This document shows, one piece after another, positions 23,099 through 41,046 of a DNA stretch of 41,046 nucleotides (the first letter of the stretch is position 1; each line of letters opens with the position of its first letter). The DNA lies in IMG/VR virus record IMGVR_UViG_2529293060_000014. One strand, given 5' to 3'. The DNA comes from a virus (taxonomy: Duplodnaviria > Heunggongvirae > Uroviricota > Caudoviricetes). The notes beneath the pieces are model-generated. The model was not told the origin of the DNA. It did not search any database and saw only the letters and a list, made by a program, of their open reading frames with translations. Both the position numbers and the translations under genes were made by a program.

Positions 23099-24076
23099 CT
23101 AAATCAGAAAGTGACTCATATTAGATCTATAAATATCAGAATTTATCTTAATTTTGCTTATTGACTCAGATATTACATTCATCAGTGAATCATAGTCTTG
23201 ACTAGTGCGCAAGGGATTAGCCAATTCATTATCAACAAGTTGTTGAGTTCCTTCGCAATTAAGTCCCAGTGGATTATCAGCCTTATGCGGTACAACAGCA
23301 AAAATAGGTCTTGCCGCTTTAATAGCAAAATCCGCCTGCGTCATTGTCCCACTATTTTTTGCTGCTTCGATTAGTATCGAAACTGCTGATAAACCTACCT
23401 GGATTCTGTTGCGTTGCACAAATGACTGCTTGAATGCAGGCCTCCCTACAGGATACTCAGAAATCCAAGCCCCACCGTTAGATAAAATTTCATTTGCTAA
23501 TCTAGCATTTTGTTTAGGCTTAGCGCTCTCTAAACCATGAGCTAATACAGCAATTGTTTTAGCACCTGCCTTAAGAGCTGCCTTGTGTGCATTTGTATCA
23601 GTACCAATAGCTAGGCCGCTTACAATCACCACACCTCTTTCACAGATTTTCTTGGTAATTCTCTTCGTAATTTCTTCCCCTGCCATAGAAACTTCACGAG
23701 AACCAACAATTGCAACTCCTGGCATCTCACTAAGAATATTTACGTCCCCCTTCAAATATAACATTGCTGGGGGATTTGGCGTAATTGCTAAACAAATAGG
23801 GTATTTAGCATCTCCAAAAGGAATTGGAACAATCCCCAATGACAAATGCTTGCTCAAATAGTCTTCAGCATTATGCAATGACGCTATAGAAAAGGCGGAT
23901 TTTAAAATCCCGGCTGAATTAACACACTCAACCAATTCATATTCATCGGAAATAATATGGAATGGAATATCGTTAAATAATTTAAGCAACCCTTGTTCTG
24001 ATGCAAGTCTATCAACCTGTACCGATAGACCTAACAATATTTTGAATTGGGAAGGGTGCATTATTTCACTCCTCAT
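23099..24076 (-). CDS. DprA/Smf-like Rossmann-fold protein (ShosA-like putative antitoxin)
   Basis: 325 aa; central VAIVGSREVS...GVVIVSGLAIGTDTNAHKAALKAGAKTIAVLAHGLE...YP...RNRI matches the DprA nucleotide-binding fold; AT-rich; overlaps the upstream PRTase gene by 11 nt. Confidence 0.7.
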   Translation of the reverse strand: MRSEIMHPSQFKILLGLSVQVDRLASEQGLLKLFNDIPFHIISDEYELVECVNSAGILKSAFSIASLHNAEDYLSKHLSLGIVPIPFGDAKYPICLAITPNPPAMLYLKGDVNILSEMPGVAIVGSREVSMAGEEITKRITKKICERGVVIVSGLAIGTDTNAHKAALKAGAKTIAVLAHGLESAKPKQNARLANEILSNGGAWISEYPVGRPAFKQSFVQRNRIQVGLSAVSILIEAAKNSGTMTQADFAIKAARPIFAVVPHKADNPLGLNCEGTQQLVDNELANPLRTSQDYDSLMNVISESISKIKINSDIYRSNMSHFLI

Positions 24077-24635
24077 AATTAGCTGTTTCTAGTAACGCCA
24101 GTGGCAATATTGTCTTTGCGCCTGCATATCTTAACAGATAATAGCACGCCGTCATACTCCCCCCAGTTGTAGTAACATCATCAATAAGGAGAATAACCTT
24201 ATCAGCCACATTGGATGTAACTCCGATTGTTGACATATGATGTTCGACAGAACGATCTCCGCCCCCCTTATGAGCACTCACTACTGTTGTTTTTCTCTGT
24301 AATGATTGGTTATATACAGCATTAGGAAATTTTTTCGCAATATCTTGCGCTATTTTTATTAAAGCTTGAGATACTTTTCCCTCAGCATGAGAAGGAACAA
24401 TTGTTATCTCAAAGGGCACGTCGGTAAAAGCAACCCTACCAATCACATAGCTTTGGAGGCTAGAAGTTAAAAGTTGGGTAAAAATATTAACAGCCTTTGC
24501 ATACCCGGAATTTGAAGCGTCCTTCAAATCCATCATTGCCTTTGAAAGTCTATCCCCGGAACGAGGATTTCGCTCTCCTCGATATCGCCAAGGATGATAT
24601 GTACCGCAAGAGTAAATTTTGATTGGCCCCATCAT
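24066..24635 (-). CDS. phosphoribosyltransferase-domain protein (ShosT-like putative toxin/effector)
   Basis: 189 aa; C-terminal type-I PRTase motif VILLIDDVTTTGGSMTA; AT-rich codon usage unlike the phage core. Confidence 0.7.
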   Translation of the reverse strand: MMGPIKIYSCGTYHPWRYRGERNPRSGDRLSKAMMDLKDASNSGYAKAVNIFTQLLTSSLQSYVIGRVAFTDVPFEITIVPSHAEGKVSQALIKIAQDIAKKFPNAVYNQSLQRKTTVVSAHKGGGDRSVEHHMSTIGVTSNVADKVILLIDDVTTTGGSMTACYYLLRYAGAKTILPLALLETANYEE

Positions 24636-32391: not shown

Positions 32392-33408
32392 ATGACTGTC
32401 AGAAAACAGCCAAACGGCAAATGGTTGTGTGAGTGCTATCCCAATGGACGCAATGGCAAGCGCGTGCGTAAGCAATTTGCTACGAAAGGAGAAGCCATTG
32501 CTTTTGAAAGCTTCACAATGGAAGAAGTGAATAAAAAACCGTGGCTAGGTGAAAAGGATGATCGGCGACGCCTATCAGAATTAATTGAGCTTTGGTATTC
32601 CCTGTATGGCCAGACACTCGCAGACCCCAAGCGCCTCATGGCGAAACTTAGAATTATCTGTAATGGTCTAGGCGACCCCATCGCCTCAGAACTGACAGCC
32701 GGTGACTTTACAAAATACCGCGAAGCACGGTTAAAAGGCGACGTTCGTAACGAAGACGGCACACTAATGTCGCCAGTAAAACCACGCACGGTGAATCTTG
32801 AGCAACGTAACCTATCATCGGTTTTCGGCACATTGAAAAAACTAGGCCACTGGTCAGCACCAAATCCTCTCGCCGGGCTGCCAACATTTAAAATCGCTGA
32901 GGGGGAACTGGCGTTCCTGACCTCGGAAGAAATTAAACGTCTGCTAGATGCCTGCGCTGATTCTCAAAACCCCAGTCTGCTTTTGATTGCAAAAATATGC
33001 CTGGCCACCGGCGCACGCTGGAGTGAAGCCGAAAACCTGCAGGGCCATCAGTTATCTAAATACCGCATCACTTATACCAAGACGAAGGGCAAGAAAAACC
33101 GCACCGTGCCGATATCTCAAGATCTGTATGACGAACTCCCCAAGAACAGAGGGAAGCTATTCACCCCGTGCAGAAAAGCCTTTGAACGGGCAGTAAAGCG
33201 AGCTGGCATCGAGCTGCCAGAGGGCCAATGCACTCACGTGCTACGTCATACATTCGCCAGTCATTTTATGATGAATGGCGGAAACATACTGGTCCTACGC
33301 GATATTCTGGGCCATGCCGATATAAAAATGACGATGATTTACGCCCACTTTTCGCCGGATCATCTTGAAGATGCAGTTACTAAAAACCCTTTATGCAACT
33401 TAAGATAG
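32392..33408 (+). CDS. int: tyrosine integrase (P2/186 type)
   Basis: 338 aa; C-terminal HVLRHTFASHFMMNGGNILVLRDILGHADIKMTMIYAHF (R-H-R-Y catalytic box); directly downstream of cI. Confidence 0.9.
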   Translation: MTVRKQPNGKWLCECYPNGRNGKRVRKQFATKGEAIAFESFTMEEVNKKPWLGEKDDRRRLSELIELWYSLYGQTLADPKRLMAKLRIICNGLGDPIASELTAGDFTKYREARLKGDVRNEDGTLMSPVKPRTVNLEQRNLSSVFGTLKKLGHWSAPNPLAGLPTFKIAEGELAFLTSEEIKRLLDACADSQNPSLLLIAKICLATGARWSEAENLQGHQLSKYRITYTKTKGKKNRTVPISQDLYDELPKNRGKLFTPCRKAFERAVKRAGIELPEGQCTHVLRHTFASHFMMNGGNILVLRDILGHADIKMTMIYAHFSPDHLEDAVTKNPLCNLR

Positions 33409-33786: not shown

Positions 33787-35523
33787 CTACTCAAGAAGAT
33801 ATTCTAACTCATCTTTTATCGGGATAACTTGCTCATAAAGTCGGTGATATGACTTCCCAATTGCGCCTCTGAATTGTATTAACTTTGGTGGCTTGTTACC
33901 TATATTAATAATATGGTCTTGAGCTATACCTGGGTAGGGATCAATAAATACAATTTCAGATATACCTAACTGATAAGCTTTTTTCGCACACAGCTCACAG
34001 GGACTGGCAGTTGTATATAACCTCCCCCCCTGAACGCCAATGCCACCATATTTTGCAAGTTGTAAAAATGCGTTTTCCTCAGCATGTAATGCACGTGTAT
34101 GAACTTGATTACCTTTTTTATCTTTATCAAGATCATTATGTATATCTTTAAAACAATAAGATAAGTTCCTGCCTCTATAAATATCACCAGTTTTATCTAT
34201 CGCCCTAAAATTTAATAGTTTCTCATTAGCTTTAATTCTGAAAGAACTATTATTTCTCTCATAATAACTGTACACTTTTTCATCAAAGTCGTTCATTAGG
34301 CCATCTAGCGATCTCATAGAGCAAGGAATCTGACCGTTGGCGACATCATTCCAACCCACTGATTTTATTGAATTTTCACCATCAGTTACTACAGCTCCCA
34401 CCTGTCTAGATATACAACCAGAGTTTAATTTTACCGTATACGCAACTTGCATAACCCTTTCCATTGCAGTAGGTGTTATCAGACCAGGATGCTTCATCAG
34501 TGCGATGTACCACGCTAATTGTGCTTTTAAAATATTGTCATTATCAAATTCATTTTTTGGGTTAAAAATGTGTATATCTGATAGTTCAATGCATTTAGTT
34601 ACATTTGGATTAGTGAGATGTTTGTAAGAGTTATCACCTTTACCTGACTCTACAGAATCTATTTCCTCTATCTGCTTTTCAGAAAACTTATGTAGTTTCC
34701 GCAAATAGTTTGTTCGATGTTCATCTGGGGCATTTATTGACATTAAATGAAATGCAGAATATCTATCCTTAAAAAATTTTGCTTCATATGGATTTCTAAT
34801 AGCATCTATGACAATTAATGCGTTATCTCTTTTGCTTTTTCTTATTAATTTAATAACCCTATTAATAGTTTCCGGCAAATGAAAAACAGATTTAGGTATA
34901 AACTCTTTATCTTCAAAATCGACTTCAATACGCCCACGGCGTCTAATTGACTTACCTGCTAACTGATAGACTGAAACATATAAATTTGAGTTTATCGCAT
35001 TTAGTTCAGCTTTGAATTCCTTAGTAAATTTTCTAACTAACCTCAAAATTGATATAAATTTATTAATCGTTTTTTCATTAAGCTTCAATTCACTATTATG
35101 ATCAAGCAAATTCTCAATTACATTTTTAAATCTTGTTAAAATGAGATTATCTGAAAATACACCAAAAGTTAATACATTATCTAAATGCTCTTTACTGATA
35201 GATTTATTAGATGATAGAATAAACTCAGAAGCTTCTTCAACTGTTAACATCAAAAGATACGCTGAGATTAGGTCACTCACCTTAATTGAGTAAAAATTTT
35301 CCCAGTGATTTTCTGCGAATTTTTTAACTATATTATAACGATGGACATCCAATCCCTTGTAAAAACCCTGTAATTTACTTACATCAGGGAAGACTGTTTT
35401 TTCGTTTTCAAGAATATTAGCTGTTGTTGTGCAACCAGAACCAGTTCGACCTGTCAAACCGACTAAAATAAACTGCCCATTTTCAAGGAAAAGCTCACTA
35501 ACGAATTTTTTTTCTTTCATCAC
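33787..35523 (-). CDS. P-loop NTPase/kinase + cytidine (dCMP/dCTP) deaminase fusion protein, AvcD / anti-phage dCTP-deaminase-like
   Basis: 578 aa; N-terminal Walker-A-like GLTGRTGSGCTTT (Cys in the usual Lys position); C-terminal zinc-deaminase signature HAEENA...SPCELCAKKA; about 30% GC, unlike the phage core. Confidence 0.6.
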   Translation of the reverse strand: MMKEKKFVSELFLENGQFILVGLTGRTGSGCTTTANILENEKTVFPDVSKLQGFYKGLDVHRYNIVKKFAENHWENFYSIKVSDLISAYLLMLTVEEASEFILSSNKSISKEHLDNVLTFGVFSDNLILTRFKNVIENLLDHNSELKLNEKTINKFISILRLVRKFTKEFKAELNAINSNLYVSVYQLAGKSIRRRGRIEVDFEDKEFIPKSVFHLPETINRVIKLIRKSKRDNALIVIDAIRNPYEAKFFKDRYSAFHLMSINAPDEHRTNYLRKLHKFSEKQIEEIDSVESGKGDNSYKHLTNPNVTKCIELSDIHIFNPKNEFDNDNILKAQLAWYIALMKHPGLITPTAMERVMQVAYTVKLNSGCISRQVGAVVTDGENSIKSVGWNDVANGQIPCSMRSLDGLMNDFDEKVYSYYERNNSSFRIKANEKLLNFRAIDKTGDIYRGRNLSYCFKDIHNDLDKDKKGNQVHTRALHAEENAFLQLAKYGGIGVQGGRLYTTASPCELCAKKAYQLGISEIVFIDPYPGIAQDHIINIGNKPPKLIQFRGAIGKSYHRLYEQVIPIKDELEYLLE

Positions 35524-35828: not shown

Positions 35829-35925
35829 ACGTCTATTGTCGTCCAGTGAGAATTGCTGAGAACTACGAGTTATGGCACCCTGAATGGGACCCACTAAGAA
35901 GGGTCCAAAAACCGAGGGTCCCAAA

Positions 35926-37155
35926 ATGGCAAAAATCGCTAAGAAGCTCACTGACACTGAAATCAAAAGCACCAAGCCAGCCGATAAAGAAATCAACTTG
36001 TTTGACGGTGATGGTCTGATTCTACGAATCGCTCCTTTGGCGAAAGGAGGCAAGAAAAATTGGTATTTCAGGTATGCAGTACCAGTGAGCAAGAAAAGAA
36101 CCAAAATGAGCCTTGGGACATATCCTCACCTTACCCTTGCAAGAGCCAGAGCCTTACGTGATGAATATCTCTCCTTTCTGGCAAATGGTGTTGATCCCCA
36201 AATCCATAACAACGATAAGGCGAAGGCATTAAAGAGTGCTACTGAGCACACTCTCCAAGCCGTAGCGCGGAAATGGTTAGATGAGAAGGTAAAGACATCA
36301 GGTATCTCACAAGACCATGCAGCAGACATCTGGCGCAGCTTAGAGAGAAATGTCTTTCCCGGTCTGGGTAATGTCCCTATCAATGAGATCCGACCTAAGC
36401 TCTTAAAACAACACCTTGATCCTATTGAGCAACGAGGCGTATTGGAAACTCTACGCCGTATCATTTCACGTCTGAATGAAATCTTCCGGTGGGCAGCTAC
36501 TGAAGAACTTATTGAGTTCAACCCGGCTGACAACCTTGGTCAAAGATTCAGTAAACCAAAAAAGCAAAATATGCCTGCCCTTCCCCCAAGCGAATTGCCA
36601 AGGTTTATGGAATCTTTGACGAATGCGTCAATCCGGTTGGAAACACGTATGCTAATTGAATGGCAATTGTTGACATGGGTTCGTCCGGGTGAAGCCGTTC
36701 GCGCAAGGTGGTCTGATATTGATACAACCAACAGCATTTGGAACATTCCTGCTGATTTCATGAAAATGAAAAAGCTTCACAAAGTTCCTTTGAGTAAAGA
36801 AGCTTTGCGCATCCTTGAATTAATGAAATCAATAAGTGGGCATAGAGAATGGGTTTTCCCCAGCATAAAAGCGCCTCTTAATCATATGCATGAACAAACA
36901 GCCAACGCAGCTATCATCCGAATGGGGTTCGGAGGCGAGCTTGTAGCTCACGGTATGCGTTCTATTGCACGAACAGCGGCAGAGGAGTCTGGTAAATTCA
37001 GAGCTGAAGTTCTTGAGGCAGCGCTTGCCCACTCGAAAAAAGATGAAATTATCGCAGCATACAATCGTGCAGAATATCTGATAGAGCGACAGAGTTTGAT
37101 GCAATGGTGGAGTGATTACGTTCAAGCTCAAAGATCAAATGCTCTGGTAGCCTAA
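35926..37155 (+). CDS. intA: P4/CP4-57-type tyrosine integrase
   Basis: Track ORF 35884-37155; start set at MAKIAKKLTDTEIKS by similarity to E. coli IntA (MARKTKPLTDTEIKAAKP...) as recalled; conserved HGMRSIARTAAEE and AYNRAEYL boxes. Confidence 0.85.
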   Translation: MAKIAKKLTDTEIKSTKPADKEINLFDGDGLILRIAPLAKGGKKNWYFRYAVPVSKKRTKMSLGTYPHLTLARARALRDEYLSFLANGVDPQIHNNDKAKALKSATEHTLQAVARKWLDEKVKTSGISQDHAADIWRSLERNVFPGLGNVPINEIRPKLLKQHLDPIEQRGVLETLRRIISRLNEIFRWAATEELIEFNPADNLGQRFSKPKKQNMPALPPSELPRFMESLTNASIRLETRMLIEWQLLTWVRPGEAVRARWSDIDTTNSIWNIPADFMKMKKLHKVPLSKEALRILELMKSISGHREWVFPSIKAPLNHMHEQTANAAIIRMGFGGELVAHGMRSIARTAAEESGKFRAEVLEAALAHSKKDEIIAAYNRAEYLIERQSLMQWWSDYVQAQRSNALVA

Positions 37156-37193: not shown

Positions 37194-37610
37194 ATGGAAA
37201 CCCTATTCAAAGTTTTTGAAAAATTTAGTTCCAGACCACTTTTTTTTATTTTTTTCGGACTCTCACTTTGTGAATTTTTTCAGAAACAATCTGTTCTGAT
37301 GAATCCATCAGCAGATAACATCGCGAAATTATTCGCAGCCATGATATTAGTTGTTTTTTTTACTTGGGGATTTGAATGGCTAATCTTCAAGTTCAATGTA
37401 AACCTTGAACCTCATGATCAAGGCGATATTGGACCAACAATTGGAACGGCTACTTTAGCTGTATACTTAGTTTATGCCTTTCACTTTCTCAGTGAAAATC
37501 CTGAAGCATTAAATTTAAAGTTATTAACTAACTCTGGCTTTATATACAGCACAACTCTATTATTATTCTCATTAGAATGCATGAAGCTTAGAAGACTTAA
37601 ACAAAAATAA
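37194..37610 (+). CDS. hypothetical small integral membrane protein
   Basis: 138 aa with 3-4 predicted hydrophobic helices; AT-rich. Confidence 0.5.
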   Translation: METLFKVFEKFSSRPLFFIFFGLSLCEFFQKQSVLMNPSADNIAKLFAAMILVVFFTWGFEWLIFKFNVNLEPHDQGDIGPTIGTATLAVYLVYAFHFLSENPEALNLKLLTNSGFIYSTTLLLFSLECMKLRRLKQK

Positions 37611-37641
37611 ACAACATCATTGTGATGATAAATATAAAATA

Positions 37642-37670
37642 GGCATGGCGAAAAAAAAATCACCACGCCT
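37642..37670. terminator. hairpin between convergent membrane-protein gene and receiver-domain gene
   Basis: GGCATGGCG-A9-TCACCACGCC imperfect stem-loop. Confidence 0.35.
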
Positions 37671-37682
37671 AAAATATAATAA

Positions 37683-39449
37683 TTATGGTAGCATCATTGA
37701 TACATAATCCACACCAATCCTTGAGCTATACTGAGACGCTATAGCCTGATATCTTTCTGCATAACCAGTTCTCAGTTGAGATTTAAGTTTGAGTCGGACA
37801 GGAACATTTTGCACGTTGCCATCCATATTACTTAAAAACACGGCAGAAATAATATTTTTTTCTTCGCCATCAACTGTTGTTCCATGATTCAACACCACCA
37901 TATAATCAACAACAGGAAGCGTTTTATCCCCTTCGAAAATAGAGAGATATTTTCTTTGATTTTTATGCATTACATATATATATTTCGAATGTTCAGCAAA
38001 TGGCAATGCTTTACTCTGACTGGCGTTAAAAAGCTCCAGAACTTTAATGAGCCTGTGCGGACTTAATCTTACATGGTGAGGGTCGTTACCCTGAGTAGGA
38101 ACCAAATCACATGCCGCAGATACACATAAATACCATTTGTTCGACTCTGTATCAAAGAAAATAGTGCCAGTAGAAATATGACCATCTTCAAAATTCTTTG
38201 AAGACAAATTCATATTTAAAGCATGATACATTTCGTGATAAGTATCATTATTTGATGGCAGATCCATTTTTGAAGAGCAATATTGGAGCAATGCAGCAAC
38301 TCCGCTGTTAGCGTATTCATTTGAATAGCTATCAAAAACACTTTTGATAAATTCATCCAGCGTATTATTATTTTTAAGTCTTTGATAAAGCTCTTCTGAT
38401 AAATTACCAAATACAAAGTCAATATTTCTACATCTAATATCAGGCGAGTCTGATTTTAATATCTCATTTAACCACGCAGCTTGACCGTAATGATCGTTAG
38501 CCAAATGATTTACAAAAGATAAAGCCTCAGCTTCGATTGCATTCTGAATTTCAGATTTTATTAACTGATAATAAGATGGTTTCCATTCAATGAGAGAATC
38601 ATTGAGAGTTTGCCAAATCCTATCTCCATCGTTTTCATGATCATCTTGAACCTTATGAAATAGGGAGACAAAGATATTACCACATTGAATCCATTTTACT
38701 CCGCTTTCATCACCCCGAATGACATTGCCAGATGTGTTGCTAGAAATAATTGCATTTCTAGACACAGCATATTCTGCAATCATTTTTGCAATGAAGTTTT
38801 TATCCTTTTGATCCTCCAACACAGCATCATCATGTATTAATCTTTTAATTCTTCTACAAGGCTTACTGTCTTTAATATAGGCTATTGTTTCATCTCTTGT
38901 GAGAGCTTTATTACCATTATCATTTAAGTTCGGTAATACAACGTCTTCCCAATAACTTTGGACATCTTCATTATCGTAGTCAATGATCAAGCTGTTGATA
39001 TCCAGAGCACCTTTGAGAGTCGATGATATCTGCATCCAAACCGTTTCTAAATTCTCTCTAGTATATATTACAATCATATTTAAATGATCGGAGTCTTTCA
39101 AATCTTGTAATAGTTTAAGTGTTTTATCAGGTGCATTATTATCAAGATGATAATCTACAATAATAAGATCTGATTTTCTAATCCGATCCACATCGAAATT
39201 AACAGAACCATTGTCAACATCACAAATCATATTTTTAGATTGAAAAAAGCTCTCAAGAGTAGCGGCTCGTTTAGATGAGTCAATTTTGTTGTAGTCTAAA
39301 TCAACTTCGTTATTCAACGCCCTGATTGATTCAGAATACGTCAGAAAATCGTCATCAATCATGACAACGGAACGAATTGCATTTTCGCAGAAAGTTTTCT
39401 GGACAAGAGAATTATAATTTGCCACTGTCATATTAGAACTCCACTCCAT
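37683..39449 (-). CDS. receiver (REC)-domain protein with large uncharacterised C-terminal output domain
   Basis: 588 aa; N-terminus has CheY-like landmarks (VVMIDDDF acidic pocket, IIVDYHL candidate phospho-acceptor Asp, MIVIYT); remaining ~440 aa match no family I recognise; start overlaps the upstream kinase stop by 17 nt. Confidence 0.6.
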   Translation of the reverse strand: MEWSSNMTVANYNSLVQKTFCENAIRSVVMIDDDFLTYSESIRALNNEVDLDYNKIDSSKRAATLESFFQSKNMICDVDNGSVNFDVDRIRKSDLIIVDYHLDNNAPDKTLKLLQDLKDSDHLNMIVIYTRENLETVWMQISSTLKGALDINSLIIDYDNEDVQSYWEDVVLPNLNDNGNKALTRDETIAYIKDSKPCRRIKRLIHDDAVLEDQKDKNFIAKMIAEYAVSRNAIISSNTSGNVIRGDESGVKWIQCGNIFVSLFHKVQDDHENDGDRIWQTLNDSLIEWKPSYYQLIKSEIQNAIEAEALSFVNHLANDHYGQAAWLNEILKSDSPDIRCRNIDFVFGNLSEELYQRLKNNNTLDEFIKSVFDSYSNEYANSGVAALLQYCSSKMDLPSNNDTYHEMYHALNMNLSSKNFEDGHISTGTIFFDTESNKWYLCVSAACDLVPTQGNDPHHVRLSPHRLIKVLELFNASQSKALPFAEHSKYIYVMHKNQRKYLSIFEGDKTLPVVDYMVVLNHGTTVDGEEKNIISAVFLSNMDGNVQNVPVRLKLKSQLRTGYAERYQAIASQYSSRIGVDYVSMMLP

Positions 39450-39818
39450 TGAACTGGATCACAAAATTAGCGCCATCTTTTATTAAATAGTTATCGCCTT
39501 CATCAGGTTCTGAATACCATATTTTATGATGTGCAACAGCAAGGTTTTCTCGACATAGATACAGACCTACCCCATGTCCATTTGCTCTTTTGCTATAAAA
39601 TAGTTCAAATAGTCGCGGGATATCATCGGTATCAATTGCCGGACCAGAATTTGCTATGATAACCAAAGAATTCACAAAACCAATCTTTATGAGCCTATTA
39701 TTTGACAGACTGACCCAATACATTGCATTGTTGATAATATTAGTAAAAACAGGATAGATCCTTGATGGTATATCTGTTATTGCGATTTGCTTAAACTCTT
39801 CACTAAATTCAATAGTTA
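39433..39818 (-). pseudogene. sensor histidine kinase, 3' fragment only (5' part interrupted by IS3)
   Basis: Encodes a HATPase_c catalytic domain (N-box NIINNAMYW, G1 ANSGPAID, F-box FELFY, G2 GHGVGLYLCRENL); the frame runs without a start into the IS3 terminal repeat at 39819. Confidence 0.65.
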
Positions 39819-39883
39819 TGATCTTACCCAGCAATAGTGGACACGCGGCTAAGTGAGTAAACTCTCAGTCAGAGGTGACTCAC

Positions 39884-40183
39884 ATGACAAAAACAGTATC
39901 AACCAGTAAAAAACCCCGTAAACAGCATTCGCCTGAATTTCGCAGTGAAGCCCTGAAGCTTGCTGAACGCATCGGTGTTACTGCCGCAGCCCGTGAACTC
40001 AGCCTGTATGAATCACAGCTCTACAACTGGCGCAGTAAACAGCAAAATCAGCAGACGTCTTCTGAACGTGAACTGGAGATGTCTACCGAGATTGCACGTC
40101 TCAAACGCCAGCTGGCAGAACGGGATGAAGAGCTGGCTATCCTCCAAAAGGCCGCGACATACTTCGCGAAGCGCCTGAAATGA
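39884..40183 (+). CDS. insE: IS3 transposase OrfA
   Basis: 99 aa from ATG at 39884 (the track begins at an upstream GTG); HTH-containing IS3-family OrfA. Confidence 0.85.
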
Positions 40184-41046
40184 AGTATGTCTTTATTGAA
40201 AAACATCAGGCTGAGTTCAGCATCAAAGCAATGTGCCGCGTGCTCCGGGTGGCCCGCAGCGGCTGGTATACGTGGTGTCAGCGGCGGACAAGGATAAGCA
40301 CGCGTCAGCAGTTCCGCCAACACTGCGACAGCGTTGTCCTCGCGGCTTTTACCCGGTCAAAACAGCGTTACGGTGCCCCACGCCTGACGGATGAACTGCG
40401 TGCTCAGGGTTACCCCTTTAACGTAAAAACCGTGGCGGCAAGCCTGCGCCGTCAGGGACTGAGGGCAAAGGCCTCCCGGAAGTTCAGCCCGGTCAGCTAC
40501 CGCGCACACGGCCTGCCTGTGTCAGAAAATCTGTTGGAGCAGGATTTTTACGCCAGTGGCCCGAACCAGAAGTGGGCAGGAGACATCACGTACTTACGTA
40601 CAGATGAAGGCTGGCTGTATCTGGCAGTGGTCATTGACCTGTGGTCACGTGCCGTTATTGGCTGGTCAATGTCGCCACGCATGACGGCGCAACTGGCCTG
40701 CGATGCCCTGCAGATGGCGCTGTGGCGGCGTAAGAGGCCCCGGAACGTTATCGTTCACACGGACCGTGGAGGCCAGTACTGTTCAGCAGATTATCAGGCG
40801 CAACTGAAGCGGCATAATCTGCGTGGAAGTATGAGCGCAAAAGGTTGCTGCTACGATAATGCCTGCGTGGAAAGCTTCTTTCATTCGCTGAAAGTGGAAT
40901 GTATCCATGGAGAACACTTTATCAGCCGGGAAATAATGCGGGCAACGGTGTTTAATTATATCGAATGTGATTACAATCGGTGGCGGCGGCACAGTTGGTG
41001 TGGCGGCCTCAGTCCGGAACAATTTGAAAACAAGAACCTCGCTTAG
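40180..41046 (+). CDS. insF: IS3 transposase OrfB (DDE catalytic domain), normally expressed as an OrfAB frameshift fusion
   Basis: 288 aa with the rve-type integrase core; ATG overlaps the orfA stop. Confidence 0.85.

Follow-up and report, generated by a model that had tools for sequence, protein, structure and literature searches.

The receiver gene and its neighborhood

The DNA examined here, called the window, is the whole 41,046-nucleotide stretch of the IMG/VR record IMGVR_UViG_2529293060_000014, a virus of the Caudoviricetes. Near its right end lie two genes on the minus strand, one for a receiver-domain protein and, upstream of it, a fragment of a histidine-kinase gene. The pair is very probably the decayed, orphaned 3′ remnant of a cassette that encodes a DNA methylase, a kinase and a receiver protein. 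The parts of the locus that carry this conclusion are as follows.

37683..39449, minus strand: receiver-domain protein of the Response_reg_2 family; the longest open reading frame (ORF) has 588 residues, and the probable true start, ATG at 39431, gives 582 residues identical to RefSeq WP_000214990.1
38580..39377, minus strand: REC fold, residues about 25–290, with a helical insertion at 150–232; the D99 codon is 39153–39155
38202..38573, minus strand: all-helical bundle, residues 293–416, with a conserved SEIQNxIExE helix and N412; no informative structural match
37686..38201, minus strand: beta-rich C-terminal domain, residues 417–588, with a weak MazF/CcdB-like fold resemblance
39433..39819, minus strand: 3′ remnant of a paraMORC-type histidine-kinase gene, the last 128 codons and the stop, HATPase_c domain only
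39819..41046, plus strand: IS3 copy that interrupts the kinase gene and runs off the end of the window

The kinase fragment is contained in a listed ORF of 133 residues (39433–39834, minus strand) directly upstream of the 588-residue receiver ORF. Most homologues of the receiver protein start at the residue aligned with M7, and RefSeq annotates 582 residues under the label "response regulator receiver domain"; thus the likely start is the ATG at 39431. The kinase stop codon lies at 39433–39435, one base from this ATG, so that the two genes are translationally coupled. The GC content across the block is 0.34–0.37. The original prediction, made from the sequence before any search, had described two coupled minus-strand genes in an AT-rich block, and this description is correct.

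The receiver protein matches Pfam PF19192 (Response_reg_2) over residues 25–181 with 109.1 bits, against a gathering cut-off of 27 (E 3.7e-31). Across 42 aligned homologues with 23–87% identity, the acidic pair D32 and D33, the phospho-acceptor D99, T130 and K266 are invariant. D99 is the Asp of the motif IIVDYHL, whose conservation had been proposed as a check. The receiver fold is confirmed; with its helical insertion of about 80 residues it extends to about residue 290. Judged by this alignment and the family score, the protein is a full member of the PF19192 family with a complete set of receiver catalytic residues. The N-terminal receiver had been recognized before, but the portion then left without assignment, about 440 residues, was too long; the part without a family comprises residues 293–588.

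The pair is already known from computational description and is not new. PF19192 and PF19191 (HEF_HK) were defined in a computational study by Bellieny-Rabelo, Pretorius & Moleleki (Genome Biol Evol 2021, PMC8011034). According to that paper, the two families are 91.6% linked in 644 regions, an N-terminal HATPase_c_3 domain (paraMORC-type GHKL) is found in 83% of the kinases, and C5 cytosine methylases and other restriction-modification (R-M) genes are over-represented nearby. As far as its available text goes, the C-terminal module of about 300 residues is not addressed. The earlier view that the module is unassignable and the least explainable in the window is therefore not upheld, since both proteins belong to these families. 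The window shares with the published system the PF19192 receiver and an adjacent kinase-like gene with a C-terminal HATPase_c, but has no HEF_HK or HATPase_c_3 domain and no linked C5 methylase.

The kinase gene is broken by IS3

The upstream ORF matches HATPase_c (PF02518) with an E value of 3.1e-12, in keeping with the original prediction of a gene that ends in a histidine-kinase ATPase domain. Its first five codons, including the TTG start, are the terminal sequence (terminal repeat) of IS3. True kinase homology by tblastn covers 39436–39819, corresponding to residues 861–988 of a 988-residue Salmonella homologue, and the IS3 end at 39819 abuts this fragment. The window gave no tblastn match to kinase residues before 861, and none to the C5 methylase.

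The HEF_HK domain occupies residues 774–832 of the Pantoea kinase, outside the retained region 861–988, so the phospho-histidine domain (PF19191) is lost in the window. The coiled-coil region and the N-terminal HATPase_c_3 domain are missing from the window kinase as well. With the methylase, the sensor ATPase and the phospho-histidine domain lost, the module is a decayed remnant that cannot signal as encoded here. The receiver gene itself is intact but orphaned, having no cognate phospho-donor, and the module is not a working system in this window.

The intact cassette in relatives

Nine loci with uninterrupted genes were compared, from Pantoea dispersa, E. coli O55:H7 DEC5E, a Salmonella integrative and conjugative element (ICE), Acinetobacter johnsonii, Acidobacteriaceae, two metagenome contigs, Klebsiella and Aeromonas. 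The same three genes are found in all nine: a C5 DNA methylase of about 390 residues, a kinase of about 970–990 residues and a Response_reg_2 protein of about 580–640 residues. They are mostly adjacent or overlapping; the methylase gene of A. johnsonii is convergent. The order is C5 cytosine DNA methylase, then a soluble kinase of about 990 residues, then a receiver protein of about 590 residues. No further gene is conserved across the nine loci. The original prediction had taken kinase and receiver as the whole layout and suggested looking for a third gene in intact homologues; the third gene exists and encodes the methylase, not a buffer receiver.

The uninterrupted homologues also allowed the sensor region of the kinase to be recovered, as had been proposed. 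The intact kinase consists of an N-terminal MORC-like GHKL ATPase (HATPase_c_3, present in nine of the nine), an S5-like region, a coiled coil, HEF_HK and a C-terminal HATPase_c. Both this architecture and the methylase linkage match the Response_reg_2/HEF_HK system as published (PMC8011034).

The cassettes are flanked by TraG, VirB4, ArdC, relaxase and integrase genes, indicating that they reside on mobile elements (ICEs and integrase islands). The A. johnsonii cassette adjoins a P4-type integrase, and that of the Acidobacteriaceae lies in a conjugative element. The mobile, defence-rich setting first proposed for the pair is upheld; its intact homologues lie on such elements and are not confined to the chromosomal core.

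An HNH_2 endonuclease gene stands beside the cassette in two of the nine loci, DEC5E (L003 13096–13968) and A. johnsonii (L007 11060–11881), with Pfam E values of 9e-9 and 3e-11. Convergent ORFs at the Salmonella (L004 9816–10559) and Klebsiella (L013 8042–8548) loci show a CxxC..EH..CxxCN motif by eye and have no Pfam match. No nuclease family was found in the kinase or the receiver protein, except that the PADLOC type II restriction enzyme model PDLC03419 (REase_II) matches the GHKL domain of the DEC5E kinase (L003 8066–11035) with an E value of 5e-13. A classical type II R-M system was considered and rejected: kinase and receiver protein contain no recognizable restriction endonuclease, and the methylase is absent from the window.

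The C-terminal module

Residues 293–588 of the receiver protein comprise the helical bundle and the beta-rich domain. A structure model of residues 268–588 alone is confident, with a predicted local distance difference test score (pLDDT) of 80.7 and a predicted template modeling score (pTM) of 0.74. The claim that this long C-terminal part matches no known family stands. Neither Pfam (E up to 1) nor NCBIfam has a family for it, and a PDB sequence profile search returned zero matches at E up to 10. PADLOC gave a single marginal match to the receiver protein (E 0.0028), inside the receiver region. Otherwise NCBIfam and PADLOC, run on both the receiver protein and the fragment of the kinase, found only generic histidine-kinase matches far under the cut-off. 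PNP or another known effector family is absent from the C-terminus according to Pfam, PADLOC and NCBIfam.

Foldseek of the C-terminal model against the PDB found nothing below E 0.03, the best match being CcdB with a probability of 0.25. The PemK_toxin and CcdB Pfam families do not match the receiver protein at E up to 1, and the beta domain, compared by hhalign with five sequences of the MazF family, gave a probability of 0.1%. Sequence identity between the beta domain and proteins of the MazF/Kid/CcdB toxin fold is 4–11%; the beta domain is larger than that fold and is preceded by the helical bundle of 120 residues. The modeled likeness to a MazF/CcdB barrel may thus be taken as a weak fold-level lead, not an assignment.

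Several positions of the module are conserved among the 42 homologues. G428, C447 and R560 are invariant, and the tail R577-x-G-x-D581 nearly so. The conserved polar positions S299, E300, Q302, N303, E306, N412, G428, C447, R560, R577, G579 and D581 likely mark a functional surface.

When 1.84 billion representatives were searched exhaustively with HMMER, the module turned up in 610 clusters. The full-length proteins among the top 150 clusters carry it at about residues 260–600. Every long variant checked starts with Response_reg_2, and the short matches scanned have no Pfam family and appear to be fragments. Joining of the module to other N-terminal domains was looked for in this search and rejected. 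Being found only behind Response_reg_2, the module is fixed to its receiver and is not an interchangeable effector.

The island in E. coli genomes

Of 5426 complete E. coli genomes, 560 contain the remnant at ≥99% identity, O111, O26 and O103 strains among them. The order of the island in E. coli is ssrA, P4-type integrase, a 138-residue ORF, the receiver gene, the truncated kinase, the ygaQ pseudogene and glaH. Three further features of the island lie in the window.

35884..37155, plus strand: P4-type tyrosine integrase of the remnant-carrying island
37194..37610, plus strand: convergent hydrophobic ORF of 138 residues, RefSeq WP_000448925.1, hypothetical protein
37640..37671, minus strand: hairpin terminator-like site, a 12-bp stem followed by a T-run, directly past the stop codon of the receiver gene and between the convergent genes

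The hairpin is the probable terminator of the receiver gene. The 138-residue ORF, noted originally as a small membrane protein convergent to the pair, is indeed convergent and is a member of the same small ssrA island in E. coli. The possibility that it is a conserved fourth gene was rejected: at five other loci, the small ORFs that follow the cassette show no homology to it. Because it is not conserved beside the cassette in other species, it probably does not belong to the system.

In the best E. coli copy of the island, the alignment to the Pantoea kinase starts no earlier than residue 374 of the latter, and the frame breaks at the start of the ygaQ pseudogene. The E. coli island kinase and the Pantoea HEF_HK kinase are 82% identical over the E. 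coli homologue. The copy in E. coli E2863 retains HEF_HK and has no HATPase_c_3. All 560 island-carrying genomes are already without kinase residues 1–373 and without the methylase. Therefore the methylase and the MORC-like sensor were lost earlier, and IS3 cut the gene again in the copy studied here. Neither the same IS3 junction nor an intact close variant was found in the 5426 complete genomes. Intact E. coli copies do exist, for example in SE15 and O55:H7 DEC5E; the DEC5E cassette represents a second E. coli variant, more distant, which 212 genomes contain.

The annotation of E. coli B1-56 (L015 5001–9785) shows a frameshift in the receiver gene, and this strain has an IS3 copy immediately past the truncated kinase; this suggests repeated IS3 activity and ongoing decay at the island. 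In another strain, the matched region contains ISVsa5, an element of the IS4 family.

A rival reading is that the orphan receiver is still functional by itself in this E. coli lineage. It could receive phosphate from acetyl phosphate or from a kinase that is not its cognate partner, or act independently of phosphorylation, and be kept for that reason. The ORF is intact and nearly identical in 560 genomes of diverse serotypes despite the long-lost kinase sensor and methylase, and it is followed by the terminator-like hairpin. However, near-identity is expected from recent shared ancestry and shows no selection. At least one strain is frameshifted and another carries ISVsa5. In the window, moreover, IS3 replaces the upstream gene, and no promoter-like site was seen between IS3 and the receiver start codon. 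A function of the orphan on its own is accordingly improbable.

The window also holds other mobile DNA. The ssrA (transfer-messenger RNA) gene is at 698–1060 and is followed by a P2-like prophage at about 1100–33408, with terminase, portal, gpA, a Dam-like methylase, CII and CI, and with its integrase at 32392–33408. Within the prophage, an AT-rich two-gene insert (23099–24635, minus strand) encodes a DprA-like protein and a phosphoribosyltransferase that match the ShosTA defence pair (PADLOC, ShosA E 2.6e-70 and ShosT E 2.7e-18). Between the P2-type and P4-type integrases lies a gene for a 578-residue anti-phage dCTP deaminase (33787–35523, minus strand), which scores 422 bits with NCBIfam NF041025 (cut-off 400) and E 8e-145 with the PADLOC dCTPase model. 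In other strains of E. coli, ssrA is directly followed by the P4-type integrase island; thus the prophage and the deaminase gene were inserted between ssrA and the island here.

Comparison with known defence systems

PADLOC 2.0.0 reports no defence-system match for the pair. The closest validated relative found, through the kinase, appears by sequence comparison to be Ambrosia of Pseudomonas aeruginosa (bioRxiv 10.1101/2025.09.30.679545). This experimentally validated system has five genes, AbrR, AbrA, AbrB, AbrC and AbrD. Its parts are an XRE regulator, an N6 adenine methylase, the 747-residue AbrB with HATPase_c_3 and HATPase_c, the 209-residue receiver AbrC, whose receiver aspartate is essential, and an obligatory HNH nuclease. 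Comparison of the AbrB N-terminus (399 residues) with the Pantoea kinase shows homology, with 33% identity in the GHKL domain (E 4e-11) and a match in the S5-like motif (E 3e-6).

Like Ambrosia, the intact cassette joins a DNA methylase and a receiver protein to a kinase-like protein that bears two GHKL domains, of which the window keeps only the C-terminal HATPase_c piece. The HNH_2 genes beside two of the nine relatives recall the Ambrosia HNH nuclease. The differences are that AbrC lacks the C-terminal module, and that the relatives here have a C5 methylase, no XRE regulator and three conserved genes. In the window, no N6 adenine methylase, XRE regulator or HNH nuclease lies beside the pair. 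The cassette is thus a distinct three-gene relative whose receiver protein has a large output module of its own. According to the Ambrosia supplement, AbrB matches DefenseFinder type II restriction endonuclease profiles. In view of this and of the PADLOC match of the DEC5E GHKL domain, automated tools may label intact cassettes as ordinary type II R-M.

Both the 2021 paper and the Ambrosia study, in the case of AbrC, suggest a regulatory role. The receiver protein would then be the transcription factor of a two-component system, turning on either the linked methylase or a restriction nuclease in the vicinity. This is the main rival to an effector role. Against it, AbrC has no detectable similarity to the receiver protein; hhalign of AbrC with the receiver family gave a probability of 0.7%. 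A nuclease neighbor supported by Pfam occurs in only two of the nine loci, the conserved genes overlap in one operon and leave little room for a regulated promoter, and no DNA-binding domain is detectable in the receiver protein. For the cassette we regard transcriptional control as unlikely.

The original prediction had likened the pair to Detocs (Rousset et al. 2023), which consists of the TPR-containing kinase DtcA, the standalone receiver buffer DtcB, and DtcC, a receiver-PNP protein with a swappable effector. In such an abortive infection scheme, a sensor kinase would detect the phage and phosphorylate a receiver-effector that kills or arrests the cell, and the window pair would be a two-gene variant with a new effector. 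The general logic is indeed shared: a His-Asp phosphorelay controls a C-terminal, non-transcriptional domain that is attached to a receiver protein, encoded in mobile or defence loci. The layout of kinase, receiver and a C-terminal part that does not bind DNA is common to both, the pair lies in a defence-rich mobile setting beside the dCTP deaminase and the ShosTA pair, and the beta domain weakly resembles MazF/CcdB toxins.

The specific features of Detocs are missing. The intact kinases carry the MORC-like HATPase_c_3 ATPase and no TPR. No receiver-only gene is present among the ORFs of the window, as had been noted before, nor is a DtcB-like gene in any of the nine related loci, where the C5 methylase is the constant third gene. 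The output module contains no PNP or other recognized effector and is never swapped in the 610 representative clusters, whereas Detocs exchanges its effectors. In addition, the window copy has no working kinase. Detocs-like abortive infection is thus a most improbable account of the pair. The observation behind the original prediction is confirmed, and its interpretation is partly supported.

The paraMORC GHKL ATPases (Iyer, Abhiman & Aravind 2008, PMC2292703) are related to the kinase through its N-terminal ATPase. Like them, the intact kinase has first a HATPase_c_3 GHKL domain and then an S5-like RVxPYG region, and shares with them the link to cytosine methylases and mobile DNA. That paper describes them as paired with helicases and with nucleases of the restriction-fold or HNH type, and mentions neither a receiver partner nor a histidine-kinase C-terminus. 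None of the paraMORC part is left in the window. The paraMORC3/Shedu protein VcSduA was also considered and set aside for its different architecture.

Proposed mechanism of the intact cassette

For the intact cassette, we infer an R-M-like immune mechanism gated by a phosphorelay. The methylase would mark self DNA. The MORC-like ATPase would clamp or scan DNA and detect foreign or unmodified DNA, or a cue of infection. Detection would drive autophosphorylation of the HEF_HK histidine, and the phosphate would then be passed to D99 of the receiver. Phosphorylation would release or activate the helical and beta-barrel module as the output, possibly a toxin-like effector that targets nucleic acids.

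We offer tentatively, as a possibility, that the C-terminal module is a new phosphorylation-activated immune effector, perhaps a MazF/CcdB-like barrel restrained by the helical bundle. The cassette would then be R-M-like with a MORC-type clamp that signals via a His-Asp phosphorelay and not by direct coupling, and the E. coli orphan would be a disarmed copy of the effector.

Several points weigh against the remnant and effector readings. The window stops inside IS3, and kinase codons 374–860 possibly lie beyond it; the gene is broken either way. Most of the 560 genomes keep an intact receiver ORF, so some residual function may persist. No confident structural or sequence relative of the output domain was found with Pfam, NCBIfam, PDB profiles, Foldseek or hhalign, making its effector role a guess. 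A search of the literature for experiments on the cassette yielded nothing beyond the computational paper of 2021 and Ambrosia, a related but different system, and PADLOC 2023 is without a model for the kinase or the receiver protein. In Ambrosia, methylation gave phage DNA no protection and the two-component part was read as transcriptional control (bioRxiv 10.1101/2025.09.30.679545), results that fit poorly with a simple self-marking model.

The copy in the window matters little; it is a non-functional remnant, already in RefSeq and shared with many complete E. coli genomes. The family is of more interest. This cassette of three genes is widespread and mobile; it links an epigenetic mark with a MORC-like ATPase and a phosphorelay, and its output domain has no known relative. 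If the effector proposal is true, the effector would survive in disarmed form as the orphan gene of about 10% of E. coli genomes. The validation of Ambrosia, with its homologous kinase, makes a defence role of the cassette plausible and directly testable.

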